The notes under the pieces: model-generated
Told to the model about the DNA's origin: nothing
Seen by the model: the letters and a program-made list of their open reading frames with translations, nothing else
The model's database searches: none
Assembly (NCBI GenBank): GCA_963706575.1
Contig: CAVPNL010000005.1
Coordinates: 256,001-320,000, forward strand
From: an uncultured delta proteobacterium
Lineage (GTDB): Bacteria; Desulfobacterota; Desulfobacteria; Desulfobacterales; JAHEIW01
Direction of reading: 5' to 3'
DNA length: 64,000 bases
Position numbers and translations under genes: made by a program
Part shown: positions 1 to 20,285 of the stretch, one piece after another
Layout: each line of letters opens with the position of its first letter
Numbering within the stretch: the first letter of the stretch is position 1

Positions 1-1290
1 AAAAATGGCGGGAGGTTCCCCTCAGGGACAAAGCGCGGTATTTATTCGATCTGAGAGGAAAATTTGAAGAACATTATGACAGATTGTGCCGGGTGCTGGT
101 GCAGGATCACGGGCGCACCATCGGAGAAGCCCGGGGCACCCTCCGCAGATGCATCGAAAACATCGAGTCTGCCTGCTCGGCCCTGCTGTTGCTGACCAAA
201 GGGAGAATATGTAACCGAATTGGCCAGAGGGCTGGATCAGGCCTTGTACTGGGAACCCCGGGGAGTATTTTTGATTATTACGCCCAATAATATTCCGATG
301 CACGCCTGGTCGTCTTTTGTGCCCTATGCGATTGCCAGCGGCTGTCCGGTGATCGTCAGCCCCAGTAAAAATGACCCGGTGTGTCTGGATGCCATCTTTA
401 AGGTTACCGCAGAAGTTGAAGGCTTTCCGCCCGGACTGATGAACCTCGTATACGGCGGCAGTAATGTGAACCAGAAGATATTGTCCCATCCGCTGGTTAA
501 AGGGGTGGGTTTCATTGGCTCTACACCGGTGGGCAAGGAGCTTTTCGCATTGGCCGGCAAGCTGGGAAAAGAGGCGTCGATTAACGGCAACGGTAAAAAT
601 CATGTGCTGATCATGCCGGACTGTAACGTGGATGCGGTTGTAGACGGGCTGCGGCGGGGCTGTTACGGCATGGCTGGTCAGCGCTGTCTGGGTAGCGATA
701 ATTTACTTTTTGTCGGCAAAGCCTACGATGAAGTCAAAGATAAATTTATTCAGGCTTCCGCCAACATGAAACTGGGATATGGCCTCGATGAGGCTACCCA
801 GCTCGGACCGCTTGTTTCTGAAAAAGGAAAGCAGAAGGTAATCGATTTTATTGAAGCCGGCATCAAAGAAGGCGCCAAATTGACACTCGATGGACGAAGT
901 GTAAAAGTCGAAGGATTTGAAAAGGGATTTTTCGTTGGTCCCACCATCTTCGAAGATGTCCACCCGGATATGCATGTTGCCCGGGTGGAAGCTTTCGGAC
1001 CGGTGGCCAATCTGATGCGCGTCAGGGATCTGGATGAGGCCCTTGAGTGGATCAATACCAAAGACAATTACGGTCACTCCGCCTGCATTTTTACCCCAGA
1101 TGGTGCAACGGCCCGCAGATTTATGAAGGAAGCCGATGTCGGCAACATCGGCATTAATGTGCCGGTGCCGCAACCGTATGCCTTTTTCCCGCTGGGTTCA
1201 AAGAATGAATCGGCTCTGGGCGTTGCCAAATCCCGCATAGATTCTATGCGGTTATTCCTGAATCAAAAAACAGTTACCGAAAGGTGGTAG
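1..1290 (+). CDS. Aldehyde dehydrogenase, methylmalonate-semialdehyde dehydrogenase (CoA-acylating)-like; 5' truncated by window edge, one +1 frameshift at ~201-203
   Basis: Frame 3 from base 3 (KWREVPLRDKARYLF...GRTIGEARG) joins ORF 220..1290 across an extra G in AAAGGGAGAATAT; motifs FIGSTPVG, GKNH, AGQRC (catalytic Cys), EAFGPV, GNIGINVPVPQP resemble MmsA/IolA. Confidence 0.85.
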
Positions 1291-1344
1291 CAATGGTTTT
1301 TAACCCGAATTGAGCGTAAACCAAATGAGAAACAGGGGGCAAAA

Positions 1345-1938
1345 ATGAGCACGAACAAACCTCAGATACGAAAAATCTACACGATCATTGAGGAAACCCA
1401 TTCGGATGGAACAGTTCAACTGGATAAACCCAGTCGTAAAGCCGCAGCCGCTGCCGTCTTCAGTAATCCTTTTGCCGGCAAATACCAGGAAGACCTCAGC
1501 CTGCTCTATGAATGGAGCGAACAGCTTGGCGAAATGTTGACCCAAAAAGCCGTTGCCGCACTGGGGGTCGAGCCGGCAAAGGTTCACAGCTACGGCAAAG
1601 GGGCAATTGCCGGCGGCAAAGGCGAACTGGAGCACTGTGCGGCGCTGATGCACCCGGCACTCGGCAAGCCCATGCGCGACAATGTCGGCGGCGGCAAAGC
1701 GTTGATTCCATCCGCTAAAAAACTGGGATTTCCCGGTGTGGCGTTGGACGTGCCGCTGCATTTCAAGGATGCCGCCTTTGTGCGGTCTCATTTTGATGCC
1801 ATGGAAGTCCGGTTGCCGGATGCGCCCCGGGATGATGAACTGGTCCTGATTGTAGCGGTTACCGATTCCGGTAGACCGGTGGCACGGGTGGGCGGTCTGA
1901 AGCTTGAGGAAGTAAAGGGGGAAGACGGCCTGCGGTAG
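1345..1938 (+). CDS. DUF1185 / amino-acid-synthesis family protein
   Basis: 197 aa; NPFAG, SYGKGAI, GELEH, IPSAKK, DVPL..KDAAFVRSHFD, DAPRDDE motifs. Confidence 0.85.
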   Translation: MSTNKPQIRKIYTIIEETHSDGTVQLDKPSRKAAAAAVFSNPFAGKYQEDLSLLYEWSEQLGEMLTQKAVAALGVEPAKVHSYGKGAIAGGKGELEHCAALMHPALGKPMRDNVGGGKALIPSAKKLGFPGVALDVPLHFKDAAFVRSHFDAMEVRLPDAPRDDELVLIVAVTDSGRPVARVGGLKLEEVKGEDGLR

Positions 1939-1965
1939 ATGCCTTCGCAAAAATGCATTAAAAAC

Positions 1966-2090
1966 AGTGATCTAAAGTTGGAAGTGACCTAAAGTGACTA
2001 AAGTTAAGGAATTCTGTCTTTTTATAAAAGATGGAGCAAAGCGACACCTTAACTTTAGGCACTTCAAACTTTAGTTCACTTTAGTCACTT
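1966..2090. repeat. Short-unit inverted repeat element (CTAAAGTG units / CACTTTAG units); same core as inside the MITEs at 35571 and 38422
   Basis: Left arm ctaaagttg..ctaaagtgactaaagtt, spacer ggaattctgtctttttataaaagatggagc, right arm aactttaggcactt..ctttagtcactt. Confidence 0.8.
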
Positions 2091-2109
2091 GTCTTTGTGG
2101 TGAGTTACA

Positions 2110-2598
2110 ATGAAATCCAATACGATTTCCATCCATTTCACCATAAATGGAGAACAAAAGAAGCTGGATATCCCGGCAGGGATGACGGCCCTTGAACTCA
2201 TCAGAGATCGGCTTGAGCTGAAAGGAACCAAAGAGGGCTGCGGCATCGGCGAGTGCGGTGCCTGCACCATTGTCGTCGATGGTCGGGCCGTCAACGCTTG
2301 TTTGATGTTTGCAGCACAATTGGACGGCCGGGAAATTTCTACTGTTGAAAGCCTGGATCAAGCTGGGCGGCTTCACCCGATTCAAGAGGCGTTTGCTGAA
2401 CAGCATGCGGTTCAGTGCGGATTCTGTACACCGGGGCTATTGATGAGCACCCGTGCCCTGTTGAAAGAGCAATCCAATCCAGACCGCAGCGAAATCATCA
2501 AAGCGATTTCTGGCAACCTCTGCCGGTGTACCGGCTATCACAGTATTATTGCGGCCATAGAAGATGCCGCCAAAAAGCAACCGAAAGCGGATAAGTGA
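2110..2598 (+). CDS. Molybdenum hydroxylase small [2Fe-2S] subunit (CoxS/NdhS-like)
   Basis: GTKEGCGIGECGACT, QCGFCTPG, GNLCRCTGY. Confidence 0.95.
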   Translation: MKSNTISIHFTINGEQKKLDIPAGMTALELIRDRLELKGTKEGCGIGECGACTIVVDGRAVNACLMFAAQLDGREISTVESLDQAGRLHPIQEAFAEQHAVQCGFCTPGLLMSTRALLKEQSNPDRSEIIKAISGNLCRCTGYHSIIAAIEDAAKKQPKADK

Positions 2599-2620
2599 TC
2601 CGGGCAGGAGCGTAAAACGA

Positions 2621-3478
2621 ATGTTTGATGTGGCGTATATAAGACCGGATAACCTCGGCGAAGCGCTTGATTTTTTAAACGCCAAGGGGGCCGAATCTAA
2701 AATTCTGGCCGGCGGCACAGATATAATGGTCGACCTGCGATCCGGCACGCTTAACACCCGGCATCTTCTCGATGTGAGCCGCTTGAATGATTTGAAAAAA
2801 ATTGAAGTTCTTGACGATAAATTATCCATCGGTGCTGCTGTGACGATTGCCGAATTATTGGAATCTAAAACCATTGCCGCTTCAGCCCCGGCCCTCAGAG
2901 CAGCGGCGAATAAATTCGCAAGCAAGCAAATCCGCAACGTGGCCACTATTGGTGGCAATGTCGCTCATTGCTCTCCCTGTGGCGATACCATTCCGCCGCT
3001 GTTGATTCATCAAGCCCAAGCGGTGGTAGCGAACCCGCAGGGTCAACGCAATGTGACCATTGAGGAAATGGCCAGTGGGCCCTATCATTGCAGTTTGCAT
3101 CCAAATGAACTCATTACCCATTTTATTTTAGAACCCAAGCCACCGGAAGTCGATTTCGCTGATTTTCAGAAAATCGGAAGACGGCAGGAACTGGCGATTG
3201 CAAGGATGAGTATGGCCGCCATGGCTTCCAAAGAAGATGACCACTCGATTTCCTTTTTACGTTTTGCCTTGGGGTCCTGTACGCCCACACCCCACCGATT
3301 TTACGAGGTTGAAGATTTTCTGATGGGCAAAGTGCCCACTGAAGAGGCCCTGTGGCAGGCTGGGAAAATACTGGCTGAAAAAATGTTGGATATCACCGGC
3401 CGAAGACCATCGGCGATCTATAAGGAACCGGCGATCCAGGGCTTGTTTATGCGCATGATGAGCCCATTGGTTCAGTAA
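2621..3478 (+). CDS. Molybdenum hydroxylase FAD-binding subunit (CoxM/NdhF-like)
   Basis: LAGGTD, QIRNVATIGGN; ATG at 2621 after AGGAG. Confidence 0.92.
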   Translation: MFDVAYIRPDNLGEALDFLNAKGAESKILAGGTDIMVDLRSGTLNTRHLLDVSRLNDLKKIEVLDDKLSIGAAVTIAELLESKTIAASAPALRAAANKFASKQIRNVATIGGNVAHCSPCGDTIPPLLIHQAQAVVANPQGQRNVTIEEMASGPYHCSLHPNELITHFILEPKPPEVDFADFQKIGRRQELAIARMSMAAMASKEDDHSISFLRFALGSCTPTPHRFYEVEDFLMGKVPTEEALWQAGKILAEKMLDITGRRPSAIYKEPAIQGLFMRMMSPLVQ

Positions 3479-3480
3479 TT

Positions 3481-5771
3481 ATGAAAGCAACATACAAAAT
3501 CATCGGACAAAATATTCCCAAAATCGGTTTAAAAAAGCGGTTGCGGGGAGAGCCGATTTTCAGCGCCGATCTGGAGCTCGACAACCCGCTTATCCTGAGG
3601 GTTCTGAGGAGCACCCAGGCGCATGCCGATATCAAGCGAATTGATTATGAAAAGGCACTTCGGATCAGCGGCGTTGTGGGTGTGTTTACTGCCGAAGATA
3701 TTCCCGGTAAAAATTTGACCGGTATCATCAACAAAGATCAACCCTTGTTGGCCACCGGCAAAGTGCGCAGTGCCGGCGAACCGGTTGCCCTTGTTGCGGC
3801 TGAAACCCAAGCGGCTGCAGAGAGCGCCCTGAAGGCTATCGAGGTGACCTACGAAACACTGCCGGCGGTGTTTCATACCACAGAGGCCATGGCGCCCGGA
3901 GCGACGAAAATCCACGAAAAGGGCAATCTGCTTTTCAGCCGCAAGATAAAGAAAGGTGATGTCGACAACGCATTCAGACAATGTGCGGCGATTGTCGAAA
4001 AGACCTACCAGACGACCTATGTCGAGCACAGCTATCTGGAGCCGGATGCCGGTGCGGGGTATGTGGACTATGACGATACCCTCGTCATTTTCGCTTCCAC
4101 CCAAAATCCCCATTACGACCATAAAGAACTGGTCGGCCTTCTGGGGCTTGAAGATGAGCAGGTGCGAATCATTCAGGCGGCCACCGGCGGCGGGTTTGGC
4201 TCCAAACTCGATATGAATGTGCAGGGCTTTGTCGGGTCTGGCCCTTTATCATCTGAAAAGACCGGTACGAATGGTATACAGTCGGGAAGAAGCTTACCAG
4301 GCGACAGCTAAGCGTCATCCACTTGAGATGACACTTAAAACAGGCGCTGACAGCCAAGGCAGGCTTCTGGCGATGAGCGCCACCATTACCTGCGATACCG
4401 GCGCTTATGGCTCCTATGGTATTGCCGTGACGTCACGGGCGGCGGTACATGCGACCGGTCCCTATGAAATTAAAACCGTGGCGGTTGAGAGCCGCTGCGT
4501 ATATACCAATAATCCCTTTTGCGGCGCCATGCGGGGTTTCGGTACCCCGCAGATCGCCCTGGCCCACGAATCCCAGATGGATCTTCTGGCACTGGAACTC
4601 GGCCTGGATCCCTTAGAAATACGACGGATGAATGCTTTGAAGTCGGGCTCTAAAACAGGAACCGGCCAGGAGCTGACGGACAGTGTCGGGATCGGCAAAT
4701 GTCTGGATGAGATCCAGCCTTACTTTGAGCAAGCCAAGGCAGAATGGCAATCGGAACCCATTGGCCCGTACAAAAAAAGAGGCGTCGGCATCGGATGCAT
4801 GTGGTATGGCATCGGCAACACCGGTGTGCAAAATCCGTCGACCGCCAGGATCACCATGGATCGGAATGGGAACGTTACGCTGTTTAGCGGTTGTGCGGAT
4901 ATCGGTCAGGGATCCACAACCGTCCTTGCTCAGATTGCCGCGGAGGTTCTGGGATTGGCTCCCGATTCCATCCGTCTGGTTGTGGCCGACACCAAGTGCA
5001 CCACCAACGCCGGCGCCACATCCGCCAGTCGCCAGACGTATATTTCCGGAAATGCGGTCAAAGAGGCTGCTGAAAAGCTGGCCGATGTTTTGCTGACCGA
5101 GGCGGTCAACAAACTGAAAGCACCCAAAACGTCCTTGCAGCTGAGATTCTGGTTTTATCAGGGTGTTGGACAATCCCGATAAAAAGATCGGATTTTCATG
5201 GCTGGCCCGGCGCATCCGCGAAAAGGGCCTTCCGCTGACCTGGAACGGGTTTTTCGATCCGGATACGGTGCCGCTGGATCCGGATACGGGCCAGGGCGTG
5301 CCTTACGCCACCTATGCCTTTGCCTGCCAGCTGGCGATGCTCAGTGTGGACACCCTGACCGGAGAGGTAAAGGTGGAAAAAATAGTGGCAGCCCACGATG
5401 TCGGCAAGGCCATTCATCCGGAAAATGTCAAAGGCCAGATATGCGGTGGCGTGGCCATGGGAATGGGTTTTGCCCTCATGGAAGAGTTTGTTCCCGGCCA
5501 AACCCTTTCGTTTAAAGATTATCTGATCCCCACCTGTGCGGATATGCCGGAGATCATTCCCATAATCGTAGAGTCACCGGAGCCCAGCGGGCCGTTTGGC
5601 GCCAAAGGCGTTGGCGAACCCGCTTTAATACCCACCGCTCCGGCCATCATCAATGCCCTGGCGGATGCGCTGGGCGAACGAATTTATCAATTGCCGGCCA
5701 ATCTGGAACGCGTTTTAGAAACCAGTATCAAAGCCGGCCATTTTGGTCCCAAGGAGGTAGAAAATGTCTAA
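3481..5771 (+). CDS. Molybdenum hydroxylase molybdopterin-binding large subunit (nicotinate/xanthine dehydrogenase family), ~762 aa after removing two +1 insertions (~4235, ~5144)
   Basis: Pieces 3481..4311, 4217..5182 and 5163..5771 are collinear: TGGGFGSK, AMRGFGTPQ, DIGQGS, TSASRQT, GQICGG, GAKGVGE. Confidence 0.9.
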
Positions 5772-6924
5772 AGTCCTTTTAAAAAATATCGGAATCATTG
5801 TCAGTGGCGATATTGCAAATCCGATTTTAAAAGGCAATGCCATATTAATCGAAGACGGCAAGATAAAGCAGAACGGTCAGGAAGGCGACCTCGATGCCGC
5901 CGGCGCTGAAATGATCATTGACTGTGATGGCGCCACCGTCACCCCGGGATTGTTCGATTCTCACTGCCATGTTGTTCTGGGAGATTACACGCCCCGGCAA
6001 AAACAAACCGGGTTTTTAGAAAGCGAGGTGCACGGGGGCGTGACGACCTTTATTTCCGCCGGGGAAGTTCATCTGCCGGGGCGCCCCAAGGATCCGGCCG
6101 GCACCAAAGCACTGGCTATTTTAGCAGCGAAATCGTTTGGCAACTTCAGGCCGGGCGGCGGCAAGGTTGTCGGCGGCGCGGTGATTTTGGAAAAAGGGCT
6201 TGTTCAAGCAGATTTTGAGGAGATGGCAAGAGAAGGCGTCCGGACCGTCGGCGAAATCGGACTGGGAACCATCAAGAATCCCGAAGATGCCGCTCCCATG
6301 GTGAAATGGGCAAAAGCATGCGGCATGACCGTGATGATGCACACCGGCGGCACCTCCATTCCCGGCAGCAGCACAGTGACCGCCGAAATGGTCATTCAGA
6401 CAAACCCGGATATCGTGTCGCATATTAACGGCGGGCCGACGGCGGTGGCAATGGATGAGGTCAAACGCCTGGTGACCGAAACCGATCTGGCACTGGAAAT
6501 CGTTCATTGCGGAAATCCCAAAGTGGCGGTGGAGGCCGCCAATTTATGCGTCGAGCAAAATGCACTGGACCGCATTATCATCGGAAATGATGCGCCTTCC
6601 GGCACCGGGGTGGTGCCGCTGGGTGTGCTGCGGGTCATTTGCCATCTGGCCAGCCTGACGGCGATTAAACCCGAAGAGGCCATTTGCATGGCCACCGGCA
6701 ATACGGCCCGGGTTCACAAACTGCCTCAGGGAGTGATCGCTGAAGGCAAAGACGCCGACCTGGTCATTATGGATGCGCCCATGGGCTCGGTTGGCGAAGA
6801 TGCGCTGTCCGCCATTGAAGCCGGAGATGTGCCAGCGGTGGCCATGGTGCTGGTGGACGGTGAAATTGTAGTGGCCAAGAGCCGCAACACGCCGCCGCCG
6901 GTGCGGAAGCCAAAAGTCGTTTAA
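5764..6924 (+). CDS. ena: Enamidase (amidohydrolase of nicotinate catabolism)
   Basis: Closely resembles Eubacterium barkeri enamidase as recalled: KNIGxIVSGDI, GDYxPRQK, PGRPKD.AGTKALAI, GLGTIKNPEDAAPMV, MHTGGTSIPGSSTVTA, GNDAPSGTG, KSRNTPP. Confidence 0.9.
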   Translation: MSKVLLKNIGIIVSGDIANPILKGNAILIEDGKIKQNGQEGDLDAAGAEMIIDCDGATVTPGLFDSHCHVVLGDYTPRQKQTGFLESEVHGGVTTFISAGEVHLPGRPKDPAGTKALAILAAKSFGNFRPGGGKVVGGAVILEKGLVQADFEEMAREGVRTVGEIGLGTIKNPEDAAPMVKWAKACGMTVMMHTGGTSIPGSSTVTAEMVIQTNPDIVSHINGGPTAVAMDEVKRLVTETDLALEIVHCGNPKVAVEAANLCVEQNALDRIIIGNDAPSGTGVVPLGVLRVICHLASLTAIKPEEAICMATGNTARVHKLPQGVIAEGKDADLVIMDAPMGSVGEDALSAIEAGDVPAVAMVLVDGEIVVAKSRNTPPPVRKPKVV

Positions 6925-6982
6925 GCTGTGATGGTGTTATTCGAAAAGTAAAGCCTTTATGGTTCGCATTTCAGTTTGTATT

Positions 6983-7090
6983 CTGGAGTAATGGAGTACT
7001 TAAGATTTCGGAATGCGGATTTCGGATTTTGAATATACGACGTGTTTGATATTCAATCTGACAATCCGGCAATTGATTTTACTCCACTCT
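6983..7090. repeat. Composite short-unit inverted repeat (TGGAGTA outer arms, GATTTCG/CGCAATC inner arms); homologous to 36954..37098
   Basis: Shared text ggag.acttaagatttcggaatgc..atttcggattt ... caattgattttactcca in both copies. Confidence 0.85.
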
Positions 7091-7137
7091 ATTAAATAGC
7101 AAAAAGTATCTCGGCTAAAAGCCGTTGGGTAAAGACT

Positions 7138-8653
7138 ATGAAGATCAATACGGACAAATGCATCGGTTGCGGGTATTGCGTGCGCGACTGCCCGGTGGAT
7201 GCCGTTAAAATGGTCAAGAAAAAGGCGGTGATCAATGATCACGGGTGCACCCATTGCGGCGTGTGCCTGCGGGTTTGCGAAAGTGATGCGGTAATTGCCG
7301 CCGAAAGCAAGCCGCCGGACGCTATCGAATGCGATGCCTGCCCGATCAAATGCTGGATTCAACCCGGGTACGTCGGCGCCTGCCACCGTTACCGCAACGA
7401 AGCGGGCAAATTGATGCGGCTCACACGGCTGCACACTTACGCCGATGTAAAACATCTCGTCGGCCCCGAACCCGGGGCCAATATTCGCAAGCCCCTGATT
7501 ACGGCCATCGGCGCCGGGACCACCTATCCGGACTGCAAACCGGCGCCCCATATCGTGCAGGCCAAAAGGCGCGGTGTTGATGTCGTCACCGTCGTGACGG
7601 AAGTTCCGTTGAGCTACAGCTCGGTCATCGTCAAAATCGATACGGATGTCCCCATCGGCCAGGAGGGCGATCGAATCTTTGTGGGCAAAAGAGAAGTCGG
7701 TATGGTGGAGACCGAACAGTACGGTTCCAAGATGCTGCATATCGGTGGTGTCAATCGTCTGACCGGGAAAAACGGTTTTGTGATTGCCAGAACCATCACC
7801 GAAATTGCCAATCGCAAACGGGTGAAACTCAAAATCGAAAACGGCAGCCGACTTGAAGTTCAGGTGGGCCATGCCCCCATCATTGACGGTAAAGAAGTGG
7901 CCAAGATGCGCGTGGGCTGCGGCAGTGCCACCATGGGGCTGTTTGCCCCCCTGCTGATAGAGGCCGCCGATGAAGTCATTATCATCGATTCCCATATCAC
8001 CGGGCAGATGAGCCGTCATGTGGCCGGAGTCTATGCCGGCGCCAAACCCACCGGTATCCGGCTGAAGTTCAGTGAAAGCACCCCGGGCCGCTATTTCGGC
8101 GATCATGGCAACGGGTGGGGGGGGACATCCATTACCCACCCGGTTGATGTGATCAGCACGATCGATATGAAAGTTGCCCGCAGCGGCATGACCATATTGA
8201 TTACCGAGACCACCGGCCAAAACGGTGCCATGTTTAAAATCGGCAAAGGCGGCAGCCTCAAAGAAATCCCCCTTTCACAAGAAAGCCGGGGCCGCCCTGA
8301 AAGCCATCGATGACAGTTGCGAACCTTCGCGGGTGTCGGCAATTTATACCGCCGGCGCCGGCGGCAGCGCGCGGGCCGGTGCGACCAAATATCCCATTAA
8401 ACTAACCCGAGCGGTGCATGCCGGCAAGGTGCATTTGACCGTGGGCGGTTCTCCCGGATTTGTCTTGCCGGGCGGGGGGATTTCTTTTATGGTGGATGTC
8501 GAGCGGGTCAAAACCGGCGCTTTTTACTGGACACCGACTCCGGCCACCATCTGTCCGCTGGAGTACACCATGAAGCTTAAGGACTATAAAGACATGGGCG
8601 GGCACATTGAAGCCATGAAGCCATTTAAAGTCAAAAAGCACGGATCAAAATGA
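7138..8653 (+). CDS. hnr: 6-hydroxynicotinate reductase, ~504 aa after removing one +1 insertion at ~8290
   Basis: N-terminal 2x[4Fe-4S] ferredoxin (CIGCGYCVRDCP, CTHCGVCLRVC), CDACPxxC..GACxRY, GAGTTYPDCKPAP, MRVGCGSA, STPGRYFG..GxGWGGT, AGAGGSARAG, PGGGI, PTPA; directly after enamidase. Confidence 0.85.
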
Positions 8654-8656
8654 CCG

Positions 8657-9532
8657 ATGTCCTATGAACAATCCATAACGCTGCTGGATGAAGAAACCGT
8701 TTTAGCCGAATGCGGTCCCATGCGCCTGGCGATCCGCGCCTGGCAAAACAGCCGACCACAAATAGACCTGTGCCGGCAGGCTGCGGAAGCATCATTTACC
8801 TATCTGGAAGCGGTCGCAAAACACAAGACCGTCTTGAGCGATTTTGCCGGGAACATCAGGGCGTTGCCGGAAAACGACTTGGCGCAGCGGATGATTGAAA
8901 GTGTCCGGGCCATCGGTGATATTGATCTAACACCCATGGCTGCCGTCGCGGGCACGCTTGCCGATGCCGTGGCCGACTGGCTGTTTAGTCGCGGGTCAAC
9001 CAAGGTCGTGGTGGACAATGGCGGCGATATCGCCATACGACTGGCAGCGGGTGAAACAGCAACCGTTGGCATTCGCCCTCAAATAAACCGCTTGGACATA
9101 TCCCATATCGCCCAGCTGGACGACCGCAGTTCATCCTGGGGCGTGACCACCAGCGGTCTGGGCGGCAGAAGTTTTACCCGGGGGATTGCATCGGCTGTTA
9201 CGGTCTTGGCTGCCAGCGCCTCGGTTGCCGATGCGGCTGCCACGGCGATTGCCAATGCCTGCTTTGTAAGGGACAAAAACATACGTCAGGCTCCTGCTGA
9301 ACAAATCGATCCCAATACCGATCTGACGGGTAAAATGGTGACAATAAGTATCGGCAAACTTGCGGGGGACAAGCGCAAGGTTGCCCAAATCAACGCATTA
9401 CAGCGGGCCGAAGATCTGGTCGCTTGCGGTGTTATTGTCGGTGCGCTTATTTTCCAAGACTCACTCTTCTCGATGACCTCCTCGTTAGCCGCCCGGATCC
9501 GCAGGATCGATGACTGCCGAGGAGGAAGCTGA
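8657..9532 (+). CDS. UPF0280 / ApbE-like protein
   Basis: LTPMAAVAG, VDNGGDIA, TSGLGGRSFTRGIA, ADAAATAIAN. Confidence 0.88.
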   Translation: MSYEQSITLLDEETVLAECGPMRLAIRAWQNSRPQIDLCRQAAEASFTYLEAVAKHKTVLSDFAGNIRALPENDLAQRMIESVRAIGDIDLTPMAAVAGTLADAVADWLFSRGSTKVVVDNGGDIAIRLAAGETATVGIRPQINRLDISHIAQLDDRSSSWGVTTSGLGGRSFTRGIASAVTVLAASASVADAAATAIANACFVRDKNIRQAPAEQIDPNTDLTGKMVTISIGKLAGDKRKVAQINALQRAEDLVACGVIVGALIFQDSLFSMTSSLAARIRRIDDCRGGS

Positions 9533-9918
9533 AGGCACTTTTGGGGTTGCGACAGCTGCACTTAAGCTCACATCTGATCGGAAGCATGGCAATCGTTGAA
9601 AGGATTAATTGGCTTGACATGGGTTAGTGTTGTTTGCTTTAAAAAAGGATCGCGAGTAATCTCTGAGCGTTGAGGTGGCTTTTGCCGTTTCGGCGAGAAA
9701 AACAAAATTTTGGCAGCTGCCGCAGGGGCTTCAGCGGCGAATCTGCTTTGCCTGTTTTCCACACAAAGAAGCATCAATGCGTGCCAGGCAGACACGCAAA
9801 CCGCGTGTGACCGAGAGGGGGGAGGCGGTTTGCCGGTGTCTCCTTGCGGCAATTGGTTTTTGCTTGAAAATTGCAACAGGCCGTTAAACAAACCATCAAA
9901 AAACAAAGGAGGCATTCC

Positions 9919-10986
9919 ATGAAAAAACGAATGTTTTGTGCCACTGGATTCTTGGTTCTTTTCCTGGCGTTCGCTTTCCTGCTGCCAACCGCGGTGACTG
10001 CCCAGTCTAAATCAACCATGCACATCAAGTTCAGCACCTGGCATCCCCCGATGAGCCGGGAGGTTAAAACGGTGTGGATCCCCATGATGGAGGAGCTCAA
10101 AAAGAGAAGCGGCGGCCGGATTACATATACCATGTATGCTGGCGGTGCGCTGGGCAAAGGGCCGGAGCATTATGACATCGTTGCCAAAGGCCTGTCGGAT
10201 ATGGGGTATTTCACCGCCACCTGGACGCCGGGGCGCTTTCCGGTCAGCGATGTTCTGTCCCTGGCCGCCACGACCGACGGCAAGGACGTGAGCACCGAAG
10301 TCGGCAACGCGCTTTACGAGAAACAGCTGAAAAATGAATTTCCGGGGGTCAAAATGATCGAGCTGAACGGCTGTATCCAGGCGTTTCTGTGGACGACCAA
10401 GCCGATTCGCACGCTCGATGATGTCAAGGGCTTGCGGATCCGATCACCCGGCGGACACCAGACAAATTATATCAAGGCGTTGGGCGCGGAGCCCGTTTTC
10501 ATGCCTCTTGGCGACGTGTATCTTTCCATGCAGACCGGCACCATCGATGGTCTGGTGACCTGCCCGCCGCTGGTGCTGGCATTCAAACTTTACGAGGTCG
10601 CCAAGCAGGGAACCCTGGCCACCTTTGGCTGCGTCACCGAAGGGGTCATTATGAACCAGAAAAGCTGGGACAACGCGCCGGATGATTTGAAGCCGATCAT
10701 CATGGAGGTGTGCAGCAACCCCTATGCCACCACCGGCGGTTTGACCCGCGATGTTTACCAGACCATGATGGAGGAGATCGCCGACAAAGGCGTCGAGCTC
10801 TATCAGATGCCCCAGGATCAGCAGGCCCAGTGGTTTAAATTGTTCCAGGCGGAAACCAAAAAGTGGGTCAGCGAACTCCAGGCCAAAGGCCTTCCCGCCA
10901 AAGAAGCCGTCATGCTCTTTAACGAAGAGACGCATAAGCACGATGTCTCCGCTGCGGCGTTTCCAGCAGAATGGGGTAAAAAATAG
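9919..10986 (+). CDS. dctP: TRAP transporter substrate-binding protein (DctP family)
   Basis: AAGGAGG before ATG 9919; signal peptide; GLRIRSPG, LGAEPVFMPLGDVYLSMQTGTIDG. Confidence 0.9.
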   Translation: MKKRMFCATGFLVLFLAFAFLLPTAVTAQSKSTMHIKFSTWHPPMSREVKTVWIPMMEELKKRSGGRITYTMYAGGALGKGPEHYDIVAKGLSDMGYFTATWTPGRFPVSDVLSLAATTDGKDVSTEVGNALYEKQLKNEFPGVKMIELNGCIQAFLWTTKPIRTLDDVKGLRIRSPGGHQTNYIKALGAEPVFMPLGDVYLSMQTGTIDGLVTCPPLVLAFKLYEVAKQGTLATFGCVTEGVIMNQKSWDNAPDDLKPIIMEVCSNPYATTGGLTRDVYQTMMEEIADKGVELYQMPQDQQAQWFKLFQAETKKWVSELQAKGLPAKEAVMLFNEETHKHDVSAAAFPAEWGKK

Positions 10987-11010
10987 CTCGGCGCATAAGG
11001 AAGGTTATCA

Positions 11011-11502
11011 GTGGAAAAAGACGGGAAGATCAAATTCTGGATTCAGCGCGTCAACCGCTGGATTTGTTATGTGGGCATGTTTCTGATTCTTCCCTTGATG
11101 CTGTTCACGACTGCTGATGTCATCGGCCGGGCTGTCTGGGCCCGGCCGATTCCCGGCATCGTCGAGCTTTCCAGCTACGTGCTGGATGTTTTCATCCTAT
11201 TGGGCTTGGCCTACACCCAGCAGGTCAAAGGCCACGTGCGTGTTTCCATGTTGACCTCCCGCATGTCGCCGCGCGCTCAAATATTTCTAGAAATTGTCGT
11301 AACGTGTCTCAGCCTGTTCATCATCGCTCTGCTGGCCTGGCAGGGCTGGGTCGTGGGTTTAGAGGAAACCGCGGTTTCCGACATGCTTAGAGTAGCGCAA
11401 CGCCCCTTCAAGCTTCTGGTCGGTGTCGCTGCCTTTTTGCTTTGCCTGGAGTTGATGGTCGATCTGGCGACAGCCTTTAGGGCATTTAAAAGGAGCGGGT
11501 AA
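11011..11502 (+). CDS. dctQ: TRAP transporter small permease
   Basis: 4 TM segments, DVIGR, GHVRVSML. Confidence 0.88.
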   Translation: MEKDGKIKFWIQRVNRWICYVGMFLILPLMLFTTADVIGRAVWARPIPGIVELSSYVLDVFILLGLAYTQQVKGHVRVSMLTSRMSPRAQIFLEIVVTCLSLFIIALLAWQGWVVGLEETAVSDMLRVAQRPFKLLVGVAAFLLCLELMVDLATAFRAFKRSG

Positions 11503-12809
11503 TGGATCCGGTTCTCTTAGGCCTTGTTGGCACCCTTCTCGTGTTTTTCCTGCTTTCCCTGGGAATGCCGATCGCTTTCTCGATGATGCTGGTGGGCTTC
11601 CTGGGCATTTCGTTTCTTTCGTCCGTCCAGGCCGCCCTGCCGGTACTGGCCCGAACCGTCTACGAAACATCCTCGCACTATCCTTACACCGTTATCCCCC
11701 TGTTTGTGGTCATGGGGGGGTTTGCCGGCAGCTCCGGCATGACGAGGCAGTTGTACGCGGCTTTCGACAAATGGCTGCGCATGCTTCCCGGCGGTCTTGG
11801 CGTGGCGACCGTCGCCGCCTGCGCCGGGTTTGCCGGGGTATCCGGATCATCGGTTGCCACGGCGGCAGCCATGGGAACGGTGGCGATCCCGGAAATGAAT
11901 CGGTTTGGTTACAGCCCCAAGCTGTCCGCAGGCACCGTTGCGGCCGGTGGCACCCTGGGATTTCTGATACCGCCCAGCATCGGTTTCGTGGTTTATGGTA
12001 TGCTGACCGAACAGTCCATCGGGAGACTGCTGATCGCCGGGATTGTTCCGGGACTTCTGCTGGCGCTGGCGTACATCGGTATCATCGTATCGTGGGTGAA
12101 GATAAATCCGAAGATTGCTCCCAGCAGCCCCGAACCCGTGAGCTGGAAAGAAAAGTTTGCTTCCCTGCTGCCCGTGTGGGAACCGCTGATGATATTTTTG
12201 GTCGTCATGGGCGGCATTTATCTCGGATTTTTTACGCCCACGGAAGCGGGTGGCGTCGGTGCGACGGTGCTTTTTCTGGTGGCGCTGTTTAAACGCAAAT
12301 TGCATTGGACGGCTTTCAAAGCCGCTTTGCTGGAATCTGTCAGCATTTCGGTAATGGTTCTTTTCCTAGTCGCTGGAGCCAACGTCTTCAGTACGTTTCT
12401 GGCGCTCTCCACGATACCCATTCAAGTGTCTACCTGGGTGGTCTCGCTTGAGGTCTCCCGGTACATGATTCTGGCGATTGTTATTCTGATTTATCTTTTC
12501 TTGGGCTGTTTTCTGGACGCCATTTCGATGATGGTGCTGACCATGCCGGTTATTTTCCCGGTGATCATCAATTTGGGCTTTAACCCGATTTGGTTCGGCG
12601 TCATCGCAGTCTTGATGATGGAGGCCGGGCTGCTCACTCCGCCGATGGGGCTCAATGTGTTCACCGTTGCGGGCGTGGCCAAAGACGTGCCCCTGGAATC
12701 GATTTACCGCGGTATCCTGCCTTTTTTGATTTCCATATTTGGGGTGGTTCTTCTTATTATCCTCTTTCCGAAGCTGGCCACCTTCCTGCCGAACATGATG
12801 CTAAACTAG
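11502..12809 (+). CDS. dctM: TRAP transporter large permease
   Basis: SGSSVATAA, GGTLGFLIPPS, FTPTEAG, LTPPMGLN. Confidence 0.93.
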   Translation: MDPVLLGLVGTLLVFFLLSLGMPIAFSMMLVGFLGISFLSSVQAALPVLARTVYETSSHYPYTVIPLFVVMGGFAGSSGMTRQLYAAFDKWLRMLPGGLGVATVAACAGFAGVSGSSVATAAAMGTVAIPEMNRFGYSPKLSAGTVAAGGTLGFLIPPSIGFVVYGMLTEQSIGRLLIAGIVPGLLLALAYIGIIVSWVKINPKIAPSSPEPVSWKEKFASLLPVWEPLMIFLVVMGGIYLGFFTPTEAGGVGATVLFLVALFKRKLHWTAFKAALLESVSISVMVLFLVAGANVFSTFLALSTIPIQVSTWVVSLEVSRYMILAIVILIYLFLGCFLDAISMMVLTMPVIFPVIINLGFNPIWFGVIAVLMMEAGLLTPPMGLNVFTVAGVAKDVPLESIYRGILPFLISIFGVVLLIILFPKLATFLPNMMLN

Positions 12810-12942: not shown

Positions 12943-13653
12943 TTATTCCCCCAGATACGCTTCACGGACCATTTCGTTTTTCTCGAGGTTTTCACAGGAA
13001 TCGCTGAGCACGACCGAACCCGATTGCAGCACATAGCCGCGGCTGGCGACCTGCAGTGCCAACCGGGCATTCTGCTCGACCAGCAGGATGGTTGTTCCGG
13101 CGGCATGCAGCTGGCGAATGGTATCAAAGATGTCGTCGACCAGCACCGGTGCCAATCCCATGGACGGTTCGTCAAGCAGCAGTACCTTGGGGCTGGTCAT
13201 GAGTGCGCGGCCCATGGCCAGCATTTGCTGCTCGCCGCCGCTAAGGGTGCCGGCCACCTGCTTGCCGCGCTCTTTGAGCCGCGGGAAGAGTTGTAACACG
13301 CGTTCCAGGTTCTCTTTGTTCTTTTGGCTGTCTTTGCAGATGAAGGCGCCCATGTCCAGATTTTCCATTACCGTCAACGTGCCGAAAATACGGCGGCCCT
13401 CGGGAACCTGGACCACGCCTTTCTCGACGATTTTATGGGGCCGCAGTTTGGTGAGATCCTCATCGTTCAAGCGGATCGACCCTTTGCGGGGTTTTAACAG
13501 ACCGCTGGTGGTTTTGAGCATGGTACTTTTGCCTGCACCGTTGGCACCGATGATGGTCACAATCTCACCTTCTTCGACGCTGACCGAAACGTCTCTGAGC
13601 GCATGGATGTGTCCGTAATAGGTGTGGATTCCCTCAACTTCAAGCATTGCCAT
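12943..13653 (-). CDS. livF: Branched-chain amino acid ABC transporter ATPase
   Basis: GANGAGKST, VPEGRRIF, LSGGEQQMLAMGRAL, LLDEPSMGLAP. Confidence 0.93.
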   Translation of the reverse strand: MAMLEVEGIHTYYGHIHALRDVSVSVEEGEIVTIIGANGAGKSTMLKTTSGLLKPRKGSIRLNDEDLTKLRPHKIVEKGVVQVPEGRRIFGTLTVMENLDMGAFICKDSQKNKENLERVLQLFPRLKERGKQVAGTLSGGEQQMLAMGRALMTSPKVLLLDEPSMGLAPVLVDDIFDTIRQLHAAGTTILLVEQNARLALQVASRGYVLQSGSVVLSDSCENLEKNEMVREAYLGE

Positions 13654-13678
13654 GGCAGACTTCCTCCTGATTTCTCAT

Positions 13679-14464
13679 CTAAGCGGCGGCCTCTGCGGCG
13701 CTCGCTCCGGTTCCCAAGTACGCCTCGATCACTTTCGGGTTCTTTTGAATTTCCGCCGGGGTGCCCTCTGCGATTTTTTCACCGTAGTCCAAAACGGTGA
13801 CAATTTCGGAAATGCCCATGACGACTTTCATCTGATGTTCGATTAAAATGATGGTGATGCCGAGCTCATCCCGCAGGTGCTGAATAAAGTCCATCATTTC
13901 CTGGGTCTCACTGGGGTTCATGCCGGCGGCGGGTTCATCCAGCAACAAAATTTGCGGACGGGTGGCCAGCGCGCGGGCAATTTCCAGGCGCCGCTGTTCG
14001 CCGTAGGGCAAATTCTTGGCCAGCTGTTCTCCTTTGCCACCCAGATTAACAAAGCGCAGCAGGCGGCTGCTTTCTTCATCGGCCGTCTGTTCTTCTTTGC
14101 GGGTGCCGGGGGTTCCGATGACGATCCCCATAAAACGCGCTTTGAGATGGGAATGCAGGCCCACCAGAATATTTTCCATCGCCGTCAGGGCGGGAAACAG
14201 GCGGATATTCTGATAGGTGCGTGCAACCCCCAGGCGCACGATTTGATCCGGCAGCAATCCCACCAGTGCGTGGCCCATCAGGTCGATTTCCCCCAACTCC
14301 GGTTTATAGAAACCTGTGATGCAATTGAACAGGGTCGTCTTGCCAGCCCCGTTGGGCCCGATGACACTGTGGATGCTGCTTTCTTTGACCGTCAGATCCA
14401 GATTGTCGATGGCAACCAGACCGCCAAATTGTTTGGTGAGTCTTTTCGTTGTCAGAATTGCCAT
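13679..14464 (-). CDS. livG: Branched-chain amino acid ABC transporter ATPase
   Basis: FGGLVA, GPNGAGKTT, LPYGEQRRLEIARALA, LDEPAAGMN. Confidence 0.93.
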   Translation of the reverse strand: MAILTTKRLTKQFGGLVAIDNLDLTVKESSIHSVIGPNGAGKTTLFNCITGFYKPELGEIDLMGHALVGLLPDQIVRLGVARTYQNIRLFPALTAMENILVGLHSHLKARFMGIVIGTPGTRKEEQTADEESSRLLRFVNLGGKGEQLAKNLPYGEQRRLEIARALATRPQILLLDEPAAGMNPSETQEMMDFIQHLRDELGITIILIEHQMKVVMGISEIVTVLDYGEKIAEGTPAEIQKNPKVIEAYLGTGASAAEAAA

Positions 14465-14473
14465 GCTTTCCTC

Positions 14474-16168
14474 CTAACCGCTTGCCGGGGCGGCTTCGGC
14501 CGCCTCCGCCTCATTTTCGTCTTCTTCGATGTGCAGCTCACGCCGCCGCTTGACATCCGGCCACAGCCCTTCGGGTTTCAATAACATCATGGCCACCAGC
14601 GCGGCACCGTATACCAGCAAGCGGAACTCGGCAAATTCGCGCAGCAGTTCGGGCAAACCGACCAGGGCGAAGGACCCCACAATGACACCGGGGATGCTGC
14701 CCATGCCGCCGACAATGATCAGACAGATAATGTTGATGGAAACAATGACATTGAAGCTATGGGGATAGACCGAGCCGATTTTAGTGGCAAAAATGGCGCC
14801 GCTCAAGGCCGAAAAACCGGCGCCGGTGGCAAAGGCCATCAGTTTGGTGGCCACCAGGTTAATGCCCATGGCCTGGGCCACGTCCTCATCCTCGCGCACA
14901 GCCATCCAGGCTCTCCCCAGGCGGGAGTCCCGCAGGCGCCAGGATATAAATCCGACCAGCAGACAGCCGGCCAGAATGATATAATAGACTTGCTGCGGCG
15001 TGGTAAAGGTGTACCCGGCCAGACTGATATTGGGAATTTGGCCGATACCCTGGGCGCCGCCGATCCACGGGCGCAGCCAGTCGGACAGAACCAGAATCCG
15101 AATGATTTCACCAAACCCCAGGGTGGCAATCGCCAGGTAATCGCCGCGCATTTTGAGCACCGGCACCCCCAGCAGCACACCGGACAAAATGCCCGCGGCG
15201 ACGACAATGGGCAGGGCACTCCAGAATCCCATACTAAAGAATCCCAGCTCAGGGGATGTCAGAATGGCGACCACGTAAGAGCCCACGGCGAAAAAGGCCA
15301 CATAGCCCAGATCCAGCAATCCGGCAAAACCCACCACGATGTTGAGCCCCAGCCCCAGAAGCACGTAGAGGCCGACGATGGTCAAAACCTCACTGAGGAA
15401 CAGCCCCAGGATTTTCGGCAAAACAAGCAGGATCAACGCCATAACCAGCATGCTGGCGAGTTTTAGAGTGCGCTGCTGCCCGGCAGGCAGCCCTTCCACC
15501 CTGGTTTTAACGCTGCCGCCTTTGCTGTGCCACAAATAAACCAGTAGTGCGACCAAAACAAACAAGCCGACGGCCCCTTTGAGAGCCAAACCGTTGGCCG
15601 CAAACAGAAACAGGTTGATCTTGGCCAGCGGGCCCCACAGCGAGATGACCGGCCGCAGCATGTCCTGCAGCATGCCGGCCATGATCACAGTGCTGAATGC
15701 CGTGATGAGCATTTTGCGAACTACGGCCGGGGCCTGGTAGAGCAGGCCGGCAAAAAGACCGCTCAGGGCGCCGCTGAACAGCAGCAAGGGGATGCCGAGC
15801 TTGGGGCCGTAATAAAATGTCAATATCTGATAGAGCACCGGTGAGGCATTGATAAACATCATTCGCAGGTTGATGAGCTTGCCGATGGTAACCAGCAGGG
15901 CAATGCCGGCCGCCGTCATCACGCCGGTGAGGATGGCCGTGCCGAAGACCAACACAGTCTGGTCCCGCCCAACTTTTTTAGCAGCCAGGTAGGATAGAAA
16001 TACCGCGTTGAGCAGCAGCAGGATGTTGCCCATGGTAACAATTTGGTAAATAATATCGCGCTTGTTAAAGGACTCGACCATGCCGATCAGGGCGAGCATC
16101 ACCGCCGTCAAGGCACCGATCAGCCCGATGTTGAACGCATTCCGCCAGGGAGATTGATCCTGATTCAT
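14474..16168 (-). CDS. livM: Branched-chain amino acid ABC permease with extended N-terminal membrane region
   Basis: GLNIVVGFAGLLDLGYVAF, RGDYLAIATLGFGEI, GRAWMAVREDE; ~240 aa extra TM N-terminus. Confidence 0.9.
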   Translation of the reverse strand: MNQDQSPWRNAFNIGLIGALTAVMLALIGMVESFNKRDIIYQIVTMGNILLLLNAVFLSYLAAKKVGRDQTVLVFGTAILTGVMTAAGIALLVTIGKLINLRMMFINASPVLYQILTFYYGPKLGIPLLLFSGALSGLFAGLLYQAPAVVRKMLITAFSTVIMAGMLQDMLRPVISLWGPLAKINLFLFAANGLALKGAVGLFVLVALLVYLWHSKGGSVKTRVEGLPAGQQRTLKLASMLVMALILLVLPKILGLFLSEVLTIVGLYVLLGLGLNIVVGFAGLLDLGYVAFFAVGSYVVAILTSPELGFFSMGFWSALPIVVAAGILSGVLLGVPVLKMRGDYLAIATLGFGEIIRILVLSDWLRPWIGGAQGIGQIPNISLAGYTFTTPQQVYYIILAGCLLVGFISWRLRDSRLGRAWMAVREDEDVAQAMGINLVATKLMAFATGAGFSALSGAIFATKIGSVYPHSFNVIVSINIICLIIVGGMGSIPGVIVGSFALVGLPELLREFAEFRLLVYGAALVAMMLLKPEGLWPDVKRRRELHIEEDENEAEAAEAAPASG

Positions 16169-16206
16169 TTTGTCAAAAACGTCCTTTCTGACTTCAGAAG
16201 AGTTGA

Positions 16207-17268
16207 CTAAGCTTTCTTTATGGCCAATCGTTCGCCCAGAATTCCGGTCGGGCGGAAAATCAGCACCATCACCAGCATCGTAAAGGCAATCGCGTCCTTG
16301 AGCTGATAGGGCGCCACGATACCCAGACCATCAAGAAACAGGCTGGGGCCGACGGATTCAACCAGTCCGAGGAAGATGCCGCCCAGCATCGCACCCGGGA
16401 TATTGCCGATGCCACCCAGAACTGCGGCGGTAAAGGCTTTGATGCCGGGGATGAAGCCCATGAAAAAATGCACCTGCTTGAACATTATGGCGTACAGCAC
16501 CCCGGCCGCACCGGCGGCGGCGCCCCCGACAACAAAAGTCATGGATATCATTTTGTCCACGTCGATTCCCATCAGGGCCGAGGCTTCCTTGTCCTCGGAG
16601 ACGGACCGAATGGCCTTGCCGATGCGGCTTTTCATGACAAAGGAGTACAGGGTGAACATCAGCACGACGGCGGCCACGATGACGACGGCCTGAAATTTGA
16701 GAATACGGATACCGGCAATTATCCAGTGGCCTTCCAGCATCGCGATGTCCGGATACGCCTGGAAGCTGGAACCATAGAGCCCCCGAAACAGGTACTGCAG
16801 AAAAAAGGACGCCCCGATGGCGGTGATCAGCGGGATCAGCCGCGGTGCGCCTCTGAGGGGCCGGTAGGCAATCCGTTCCAGAAAAAAAGCAATCGTGACG
16901 GATACGGCCATGGATACGAGGAAGATGACCCCCAGGCAGAGAATGGGCTGGGCCTCCAGAAAGTCATTGCGGTAAAAATAGGCCGCCACAAAATAGGCCG
17001 TATAGGGTCCGCTCATGAAGACTTCGCCGTGCGCAAAGTTGATCATGCGCAACACGCCGTAAACCATGGTATAACCGGTGGCGATCAGCGCATACACACT
17101 GCCCTGGGCCAGGCCGAAGATGACGAAATCGATCCAGTGTCGGGTGGTATAGGTCCCTTTGATCAGGGTGGCGATCGAGCCCCAGATAATCAGGAACAGC
17201 AGCCCGCCGCCGATCAGCCACATCACCACGTCGGTGGGTGATATCCGTTCGCGAATTCGTTGCAGCAT
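16207..17268 (-). CDS. livH: Branched-chain amino acid ABC permease
   Basis: YALIATGYTMVYGVLRMINFAHGE, KAFTAAVLGGIG. Confidence 0.92.
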   Translation of the reverse strand: MLQRIRERISPTDVVMWLIGGGLLFLIIWGSIATLIKGTYTTRHWIDFVIFGLAQGSVYALIATGYTMVYGVLRMINFAHGEVFMSGPYTAYFVAAYFYRNDFLEAQPILCLGVIFLVSMAVSVTIAFFLERIAYRPLRGAPRLIPLITAIGASFFLQYLFRGLYGSSFQAYPDIAMLEGHWIIAGIRILKFQAVVIVAAVVLMFTLYSFVMKSRIGKAIRSVSEDKEASALMGIDVDKMISMTFVVGGAAAGAAGVLYAIMFKQVHFFMGFIPGIKAFTAAVLGGIGNIPGAMLGGIFLGLVESVGPSLFLDGLGIVAPYQLKDAIAFTMLVMVLIFRPTGILGERLAIKKA

Positions 17269-17397
17269 AGTTCTTTTCCTTCTTAATCCTTATGAACCTG
17301 ATGTTTGCCTTATGACAACGTGCGTTTTCTCGCAACGCGAAATGTTGCCTGCGTTGACGCACGGCAAACGGTCGGGGAGAATATGCTATTTTGCAGG

Positions 17398-17430
17398 GAG
17401 AGCCGGGTATCATTCGCATACCCGGCTCTC
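17398..17430. other. Perfect 13-bp-stem hairpin between livK and livH
   Basis: GAGAGCCGGGTAT-CATTCGC-ATACCCGGCTCTC. Confidence 0.6.
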
Positions 17431-17452
17431 ATGCAGCATTAAAGAAAAAGCG

Positions 17453-17480
17453 AAAAAGCCGGCTTCGATAGAAGCCGGCT
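17453..17480 (-). terminator. Intrinsic terminator / stabilising hairpin after livK
   Basis: Minus strand AGCCGGCTTC-TATC-GAAGCCGGCT followed by a T run. Confidence 0.7.
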
Positions 17481-17494
17481 CTGATCGATTAAAA

Positions 17495-18715: not shown

Positions 18716-18766
18716 TTCATATCTCCTTTCTCTGTATCATTAGTGCTCAACGTATTGAGAGCTTGG

Positions 18767-18815
18767 TAGAACAGTACGGCTTGAGATCTTATTAGAACAG
18801 TACAACTTGAGATCT
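18767..18815. repeat. Two 23-nt direct repeats (period 26) in the livK upstream region
   Basis: TAGAACAGTACGGCTTGAGATCT (18767) and TAGAACAGTACAACTTGAGATCT (18793). Confidence 0.8.
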
Positions 18816-18840
18816 GATTTAGGACGGAACAACACTGTCT

Positions 18841-18876
18841 GGCTGCATCACCTCCTTTCAGCATCTGTGGAGATGC
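18841..18876 (-). promoter_or_regulatory. Hairpin plus extended Shine-Dalgarno-like site in the livK leader
   Basis: Minus strand GCATCT-CCAC-AGATGC then GAAAGGAGGTGATGCAGCC, 18/19 complementary to the usual 16S 3' end. Confidence 0.45.
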
Positions 18877-19060
18877 CGGGGATCATTAGGCCATATTTTC
18901 AAAGGCTTAAAATGTCAAACAGCCGTTGCCTGACGCTGCTGACTGTCAACCGGCTGAAATCATGGCTAAATAAGATTTAGTTGGTGATTTCGATTCAAAA
19001 GGTTTGGCGCCTATTTAAACAACATTTGAGCATTAGTCAAGAGCTAATGTTAAGAAAAGG

Positions 19061-20227: not shown

Positions 20228-20285
20228 GCGCATTGCCTCCACAAGCACATCTAAATAAAGCTGCTGTTTTCAGGTATCCGTCATC

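Follow-up and report, generated by a model that had tools for sequence, protein, structure and literature searches.

A probable nicotinate-degradation cluster of an uncultured Desulfobacterales bacterium and its proposed 2-formylglutarate dehydrogenase

The nicotinate cluster of Eubacterium barkeri, reportedly described by Alhapel et al. in 2006, is said to comprise NdhFSLM, Hnr, Ena, Hgd, Hmd, Mgm, Mii, DmdAB and Dml, and we take the PDB entries 3HRD, 2VUN and 3CKY to be structures of its enzymes. Nicotinate is also oxidised by sulfate reducers such as Desulfobacterium niacini. Here we analyzed 64,000 nucleotides (the window) of an uncultured delta proteobacterium (assembly GCA_963706575.1, contig CAVPNL010000005.1, positions 256,001 to 320,000; G000:C5:256001-320000 in our numbering), in which a nicotinate cluster includes a gene for an aldehyde dehydrogenase (ALDH) related to methylmalonate-semialdehyde dehydrogenases (MMSDHs). 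We propose that this ALDH, termed type A, may be a 2-formylglutarate dehydrogenase (decarboxylating, CoA-acylating). PMC9304392 gives the route to (S)-2-formylglutarate, and the first three steps have been published for the proteobacterial tetrahydro-6-oxonicotinate (THON) clusters of Azorhizobium caulinodans and Bradyrhizobiaceae (PMC3511419).

The initial annotation of this DNA had suggested the ALDH as a shortcut to glutaryl-CoA. This suggestion was strengthened by the absence of the E. barkeri lower branch, by genes for a glutaryl-CoA sink and by an occurrence limited to enamidase-positive genomes, and we infer the exact chemistry. Comparison of sequences indicates that the ALDH probably catalyses the step following enamidase, with glutaryl-CoA as its product. 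That it would make glutaryl-CoA directly from 2-formylglutarate, by oxidative decarboxylation with CoA as in MMSDH, is somewhat favored. Slightly short of an even chance is given to the full proposal, namely a widespread, undescribed lower branch of Desulfobacterota in which a 2-formylglutarate dehydrogenase replaces the six-step B12 route in one step, is possibly NADP-linked in type A, and derives by recruitment from MMSDH-like ancestors, in two types that exclude each other and show the same four pocket changes, with the DUF1185 protein as an enamine-hydrolysing helper of enamidase.

Organization of the cluster and its upper pathway

The source genome (G000; 5.67 Mb, 91.8% complete, 6.4% contamination) carries a dsrA scoring over its cut-off, and the closest related loci were from Desulfobacterales, in agreement with the sulfate-reducing host assumed at the outset. 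The co-oriented set first listed was recovered completely: ALDH, the S/F/L subunits of a Mo-hydroxylase (Ndh), enamidase (Ena), 6-hydroxynicotinate reductase (Hnr) and the tripartite ATP-independent periplasmic (TRAP) transporter DctPQM are all encoded on the + strand within 1..12809 of the window. Two more genes of the cluster had been overlooked, encoding a DUF1185 protein (1345..1938, +; PF06684, E 2e-71) and a UPF0280/ApbE-like protein (8657..9532, +; PRK04334 models and a weak PF02424 match at E 5e-4, all below cut-off). The cluster had also been expected to continue past the left edge of the window. It does so with the start of the ALDH gene and, preceding this, a gene for a GntR/FCD regulator (G000:C5:254944-255639; PF00392 and PF07729), but it extends only ~1.1 kb and nothing further of the pathway is located there. 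The open reading frames (ORFs) upstream of the regulator gene read as NAD kinase, AhcY and MetK in translation, and no hgd, hmd or mgm was found among these translated ORFs.

Two sets were used for comparison, the best 80 of 147 related loci, 38 of them with wide flanks, and a phylum set of 301 genomes (G000 and 300 of at least 90% completeness) that overlaps in part with the 80 loci. Beside enamidase in the 38 wide-flank loci, Hnr, NdhL and DUF1185 were each found in 37/38 and UPF0280 in 35/38. Since three of these genes adjoin enamidase in 37/38 loci, the arrangement is not due to chance.

The Ndh genes on the + strand are ndhS (2110..2598; 2x[2Fe-2S] subunit, PF00111 and PF01799), ndhF (2621..3478; FAD subunit, PF00941 and PF03450, with ATG at 2621 after AGGAG) and ndhL (3481..5771). 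The split NdhL/NdhM arrangement of E. barkeri is absent; instead NdhL is a single-chain molybdopterin subunit corresponding to L and M fused, and its halves matched 3HRD_A and 3HRD_B best in a PDB search. NdhL is one ORF of ~760 aa in relatives, and the breaks in the window's copy lie away from the L/M junction. An equivalent of Tyr13M, which is modelled as binding the nicotinate ring nitrogen (PMC5746545), is kept in the NdhL of the window and in 81/82 orthologs, compared with 0/9 paralogs from G000. Because homologs of selD, YqeB, YqeC, XdhC and MocA are present in G000, a Mo-Se site on Ndh is probable. In the loci L072, L075 and L077, a 645-aa NADH:flavin oxidoreductase of the old yellow enzyme (OYE) family is encoded directly before ndhS, and the ALDH gene is on another contig.

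Ena (5764..6924, +) aligned with the E. barkeri enamidase 2VUN over residues 1-385 of 386 (E 9.7e-154). This was its sole PDB match at E<=1e-8, so no enzyme for another heterocycle matched at that level. H67, H69, E164, H193, H220 and D276, presumably the binuclear metal ligands of enamidase, are all kept. Hnr (7138..8653, +) has an N-terminal 2x[4Fe-4S] region with Fer4 domains and is one ORF of ~504 aa in relatives. A homolog 92% identical to the ortholog in L004 is named 6-hydroxynicotinate reductase by JGI, as is another (73%) by NCBI; most other close homologs carry generic database names. The assignment is based on the names of close homologs and on gene context. Nicotinamidase-like genes were found at 24/80 related loci.

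In the proposed upper pathway, imported nicotinate would be hydroxylated at C6 by NdhSFL, probably at a Mo-Se site, as orthology and the E. barkeri chemistry suggest. Hnr would then reduce the ring to THON, and Ena would open the THON ring with release of NH3 to give 2-formylglutarate. We are highly confident that the cluster is real and represents the upper pathway of anaerobic nicotinate degradation. If it degraded another pyridine or N-heterocycle instead, the ALDH would take a different aldehyde; enamidase homologs of 44-52% identity do occur without Hnr in other contexts, and NdhL as a whole chain scored similarly to 4-hydroxybenzoyl-CoA reductase as to the 3HRD_A chain alone. However, the full-length enamidase match with conserved ligands, the kept Tyr13M, the nicotinamidase-like neighbors at related loci and an identity of 59-75% to genes feeding an E. 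barkeri lower branch in the genome G063 (see below) make another substrate very improbable.

An MttB-family methyltransferase recurs at 5/80 nicotinate loci (e.g., L045:13024-14469 and L152:9479-12580), and G000 has a 65% identical MttB-family copy on another contig (G000:C1:273948-275375). The recurrent protein may demethylate trigonelline (N-methylnicotinate).

The aldehyde dehydrogenase and the proposed lower pathway

The type A ALDH gene (1..1290, +) starts 192 bases before the window and has one extra base near 196-201; in relatives it encodes an intact protein of 493 aa. Naturally unbroken type A copies include L027:3565-5046 and L043:4054-5538, the second from a record titled Delta proteobacterium NaphS2. 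Its best NCBIfam model was TIGR01722, for which the two frameshifted pieces scored 73.5 and 280.5 and their sum remained below the cut-off of 448.5, and its best PDB matches were all MMSDHs. A separate housekeeping MMSDH of G000, over the TIGR01722 cut-off, adjoins an aminotransferase-like ORF. Type A formed its own clade with a long stem in a tree of 101 rows (SH-aLRT 100). A second group, type B (e.g., L037:1486-2982, L158, L164 and L175), was 36% identical to type A and did not resolve as a supported monophyletic group (SH-aLRT 79); the tree thus gives no support to independent origins of the two types.

With a match at E<=1e-80 as criterion, 55 of the 301 phylum genomes were Ena-positive and 246 negative; an enamidase at 54% identity or more occurred in 53/301 (about one in six). 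The type A search retrieved 37 genomes, of which the 36 at 55% identity or more were all Ena-positive and one at 44% was dropped. The type B search retrieved 22, of which the 13 at 58% or more were all Ena-positive and A-negative and the nine at 41-44% were dropped. With cut-offs set at visible gaps after the results, about five candidates scored per genome and kin that are not independent, types A and B were carried by 36 and 13 of the 55 Ena-positive genomes, never together, and by 0/246 Ena-negative ones. Type A spans 15 families and type B five, and four families include genomes with A and other genomes with B. Among the six remaining Ena-positive genomes, a partial type A gene lies beside Ena in two, and type A is on another contig in one; in a fourth, the contig ends where relatives have the ALDH, and the last two carry Ena homologs that are divergent (45-52%), without Hnr in the stretch examined. 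Of the 38 wide-flank loci, 24 carried type A, nine type B, none both and five neither.

The initial annotation had stated that Hgd, Hmd and Mgm genes are missing from the window, and for Mgm and the Hmd-like protein this extends to the rest of the assembly. Searches of the 91.8%-complete G000 with queries from G063 detected no Mgm, Mii, MgmL, Hmd-like or Dml protein, and family searches agreed; for the Hmd-like protein, the absence is based on tblastn with the G063 protein, which no Pfam model (including PF03313) matches. The best Hgd-like match in G000 was 40% identical and in an unrelated context, and one LeuCD-like pair is located on contig C8. The Mgm query obtained B12-domain matches only. 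Six methylmalonyl-CoA-mutase-family genes of G000 were ruled out as Mgm, as the G063 protein matched nothing but B12-binding domains.

G063 is a Desulfobulbaceae-titled genome whose Ndh, Ena and Hnr genes (L065) correspond to those of G000 with 59-75% identity. It also carries Hgd (best PDB match 3CKY), an Hmd-like ORF labelled by position and without Pfam match, a B12 protein of 624 aa that reads as Mgm, a PrpF-family Mii, a MutL-family MgmL, LeuCD-like genes and Dml-like genes of the phosphoenolpyruvate-mutase/isocitrate-lyase family. The E. barkeri nicotinate fermentation cluster therefore appears complete in this genome (G063:C33; L152:6393-20000, L065 and L252:1087-9403), accompanied by MttB/corrinoid/pterin methyltransferase and selenium-hydroxylase maturation genes. 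No ALDH above 35% identity, no 3MPI-type match and no GcdA were found in G063. Mgm was detected in 1/80 related genomes (G063 itself) and in 0/301 phylum genomes. Since the ALDH occurs only in Ena-positive genomes and is missing from this relative with the B12 branch, it very likely acts just after enamidase.

A possible sink for glutaryl-CoA is encoded in G000. The glutaryl-CoA dehydrogenase that had been proposed as a check was found as a homolog (E 9e-197) of 3MPI, which we take to be the non-decarboxylating enzyme of Desulfococcus multivorans, beside electron-transfer-flavoprotein-like genes. GcdA was found as well (E 6e-217), and both are on other contigs, unlinked to the nicotinate cluster. 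GcdA was present in 37 of the 55 Ena-positive genomes, and 17 contained a clear ortholog of the 3MPI type (63% identity or more). Acyl-CoA dehydrogenases 44-51% identical to the 3MPI type (L240-L249) are widespread. Glutaryl-CoA-dehydrogenase-like matches at E<=1e-94 (52/55 Ena-positive, 88/246 Ena-negative) were discarded as support because many have no equivalent of Arg87, presumably a functional residue of this enzyme.

Residues were numbered as in L027 and compared in 56 type A, 22 type B and 19 housekeeping-type rows, with four more distant rows left out. R114, N161, R292 and C293 were invariant (56/56, 22/22 and 19/19); following the MMSDH and ALDH2 literature, we take R114 and R292 to be the Arg residues binding the substrate carboxylate, N161 the oxyanion Asn and C293 the catalytic Cys, and an alignment with 1T90 and other PDB matches agrees. 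The general-base Glu is absent from the ALDH (GNGKNH), and both types have the G.xKNH motif typical of MMSDHs; the lack of this Glu fits CoA-dependent deacylation. C285, H423, K/R474 and R476, common to types A and B in comparison with the 19 housekeeping-type rows, could bind a second carboxylate. Type A has NIPMHAWSS in place of the FNFP..M...W pocket and SPS(R/K) in place of the KPSE cofactor motif. F162I, M165H and W169S would widen the pocket, and K184S together with R/K187 hints at the use of NADP+. The window's own ALDH pieces carry the residues listed here.

By analogy with MMSDH, the catalytic Cys would attack the formyl group, with hydride transfer to NAD(P)+; the C7 carboxyl would leave the beta-carboxy acyl-enzyme as CO2, and the glutaryl group would pass to CoA. 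The dehydrogenase and GcdA would then lead to crotonyl-CoA and acetyl-CoA, to be oxidised with sulfate. Beta-aldo acids decarboxylate readily, and a first decarboxylation of 2-formylglutarate, spontaneous or due to DUF1185, might give glutarate semialdehyde, which the ALDH would then oxidise with CoA to glutaryl-CoA; Kitts (1992) reportedly found such an order in A. caulinodans. The presence of DUF1185 in 37/38 wide-flank loci and the remodelled type A pocket would suit this order. Both carboxylate-binding Arg residues, however, are kept in 56/56 type A and 22/22 type B rows, the basic residues at 474/476 are extra as a dicarboxylate would need, and DUF1185 also occurs in G063, whose Hgd requires 2-formylglutarate in intact form. 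We therefore consider prior decarboxylation unlikely.

Several observations weigh against glutaryl-CoA formation by the ALDH or against its assignment to this step. Neither GcdA nor a clear 3MPI-type dehydrogenase was found in 17/55 Ena-positive genomes (decarboxylating GcdH was not searched), two of which lack the cluster; these 17 genomes are the main unexplained point. Among the 44-51% homologs of the 3MPI type, 7/10 sampled have no Arg87 equivalent. Type A has lost four conserved MMSDH residues (F162I, M165H, W169S and K184S). The either/or of ALDH and B12 branch is based on one genome (G063), G000 is incomplete and contains some contamination, and the cluster has more frame breaks than the genome background (see below). 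No MMSDH-like ALDH was found within 12 kb in the aerobic clusters viewed (three plasmids, including Sulfitobacter), and the A. caulinodans route is reported via free glutarate (PMC3511419). The sink-less genomes and this intermediate would agree with another product of the ALDH, either free glutarate formed by hydrolysis or 2-carboxyglutaryl-CoA decarboxylated by another enzyme. Hydrolytic deacylation would use the Glu that is absent here, the G.xKNH motif is present in both types, and no recurrent CoA-transferase, ligase or carboxyltransferase cluster was seen beside the operon, which leaves only a small chance for such a product compared with glutaryl-CoA.

Frameshifts, accessory genes and neighborhood

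Compared with relatives, one extra base each was found near 196-201 (ALDH), 4234-4238 and 5143-5144 (NdhL) and 8277 (Hnr); the relatives are 76-94% identical and have intact genes. Environmental contigs from four public runs, taken at an 88% likeness threshold and originating from related strains, none from the source strain itself, had no extra base at any of the four places where they covered them. The genome background was 16 breaks in 352 kb, with 14 broken proteins among 281 usable ones (448 from the two closest genomes); in an earlier, smaller protein set, 0/31 were broken. Four breaks in ~12.3 kb are ~7x the genome-wide rate (Poisson P ~0.003) and exceed this background. This excess in three key genes, and a comparison limited to contigs of related strains, would suit a decaying relic with real frameshifts. 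Against this, 20/24 frame-breaking gaps in the 14 other broken genes were the same single extra base, the environmental contigs have none, none of the tested genes of the cluster contained a premature stop, and the broken genes (dN/dS 0.07-0.13) were on par with intact Ena (0.07-0.10). Decay is thus quite unlikely; because of the single-base pattern, the lack of stops and the dN/dS values, the four frameshifts are likely to be errors of this assembly. About 5% of the tested G000 genes are split by single extra bases, and upstream of the window (L001, G000:C5:236001-256000) ATP-synthase-like and DsbD-like ORFs also look split. Annotation of this assembly will therefore under-call genes.

The TRAP transporter genes dctP (9919-10986; PF03480), dctQ (11011-11502; PF04290) and dctM (11502-12809; PF06808) are located on the + strand, and the importer likely takes up nicotinate. 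Orthologs occurred at 17/80 related loci; others, including the two closest, have ATP-binding cassette (ABC) systems instead. DUF1185 was found near enamidase homologs on 3/3 plasmids viewed and in G063. Because its gene accompanies that of enamidase regardless of which lower branch is present, a role in the enamidase reaction is more likely for this protein than one as the decarboxylase, and it possibly helps to hydrolyse the enamine intermediate. UPF0280 is a possible flavin transferase for Hnr, but this idea is without motif support, as no conserved [ST]GA[ST] flavinylation motif was present in 76 Hnr rows; the listed flavinylation papers, part of those matching, mention neither Hnr nor UPF0280.

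Short palindromic intergenic repeats are located inside the operon (window 1960-2100 and 6970-7090), and BLAST found 114 and 21 pieces of them throughout the genome; they are probably small mobile or REP-like elements. A promoter and terminator scan of the cluster gave consensus matches only, little above shuffle level. Contigs of one RNA run lying on the cluster were rejected as a sign of its expression, because such contigs do not show expression. On the right, the cluster is bounded by a convergent branched-chain-type ABC transporter; the region 12943-21344 holds this transporter and, after it, genes for a DAO-family oxidoreductase and a protein of the ornithine cyclodeaminase family, which suggests a separate amino-acid catabolic unit.

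Significance and comparison with known systems

A literature search found no published CoA-acylating step to glutaryl-CoA, within a scope that did not include Alhapel 2006 and Kitts 1992, either of which may propose it. If the proposal is true, the ALDH would connect the known ring-opening enzymes to the central metabolism of sulfate reducers and of related anaerobes, a link missing so far. It would have an activity new to the EC list that current annotation mistakes for methylmalonate-semialdehyde dehydrogenase, and vitamin B3 would commonly supply carbon and nitrogen in anoxic sediments; DUF1185 and UPF0280 would gain testable roles. The finding extends known chemistry and is not a new kind of system. 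The first three steps were already known, and, judged from sequence, the ALDH step would be new here.

The E. barkeri system is similar in its first three enzymes, which are orthologous, in the kept Tyr13M and enamidase ligands, and in the selenium-hydroxylase maturation genes located elsewhere in G000. It differs from the present cluster, which has a single-chain Mo subunit, no lower branch that could be found and an MMSDH-like ALDH in the operon, and whose host has dsrA, glutaryl-CoA dehydrogenase and GcdA. The proteobacterial THON clusters, unlike this one, are from aerobic hosts and are reported to run via free glutarate (PMC3511419). The D. multivorans glutaryl-CoA dehydrogenase (3MPI) and the glutaconyl-CoA decarboxylase (3GF3/1PIX) have clear, unlinked orthologs in G000. 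The MmsA/IolA MMSDHs (EC 1.2.1.27/1.2.1.18; TIGR01722; 1T90, 4ZZ7 and 5TJR) are the best family and PDB matches of the ALDH, which keeps the catalytic Cys, the preceding Arg, the helix Arg and the oxyanion Asn, with the general-base Glu absent. In contrast to them, the ALDH scores below the family cut-off in its two frameshifted pieces, is ~40% identical to the housekeeping copies, forms a long-stemmed clade of its own with F162I, M165H, W169S and K184S and the added K474/R476, and is carried by Ena-positive genomes only.

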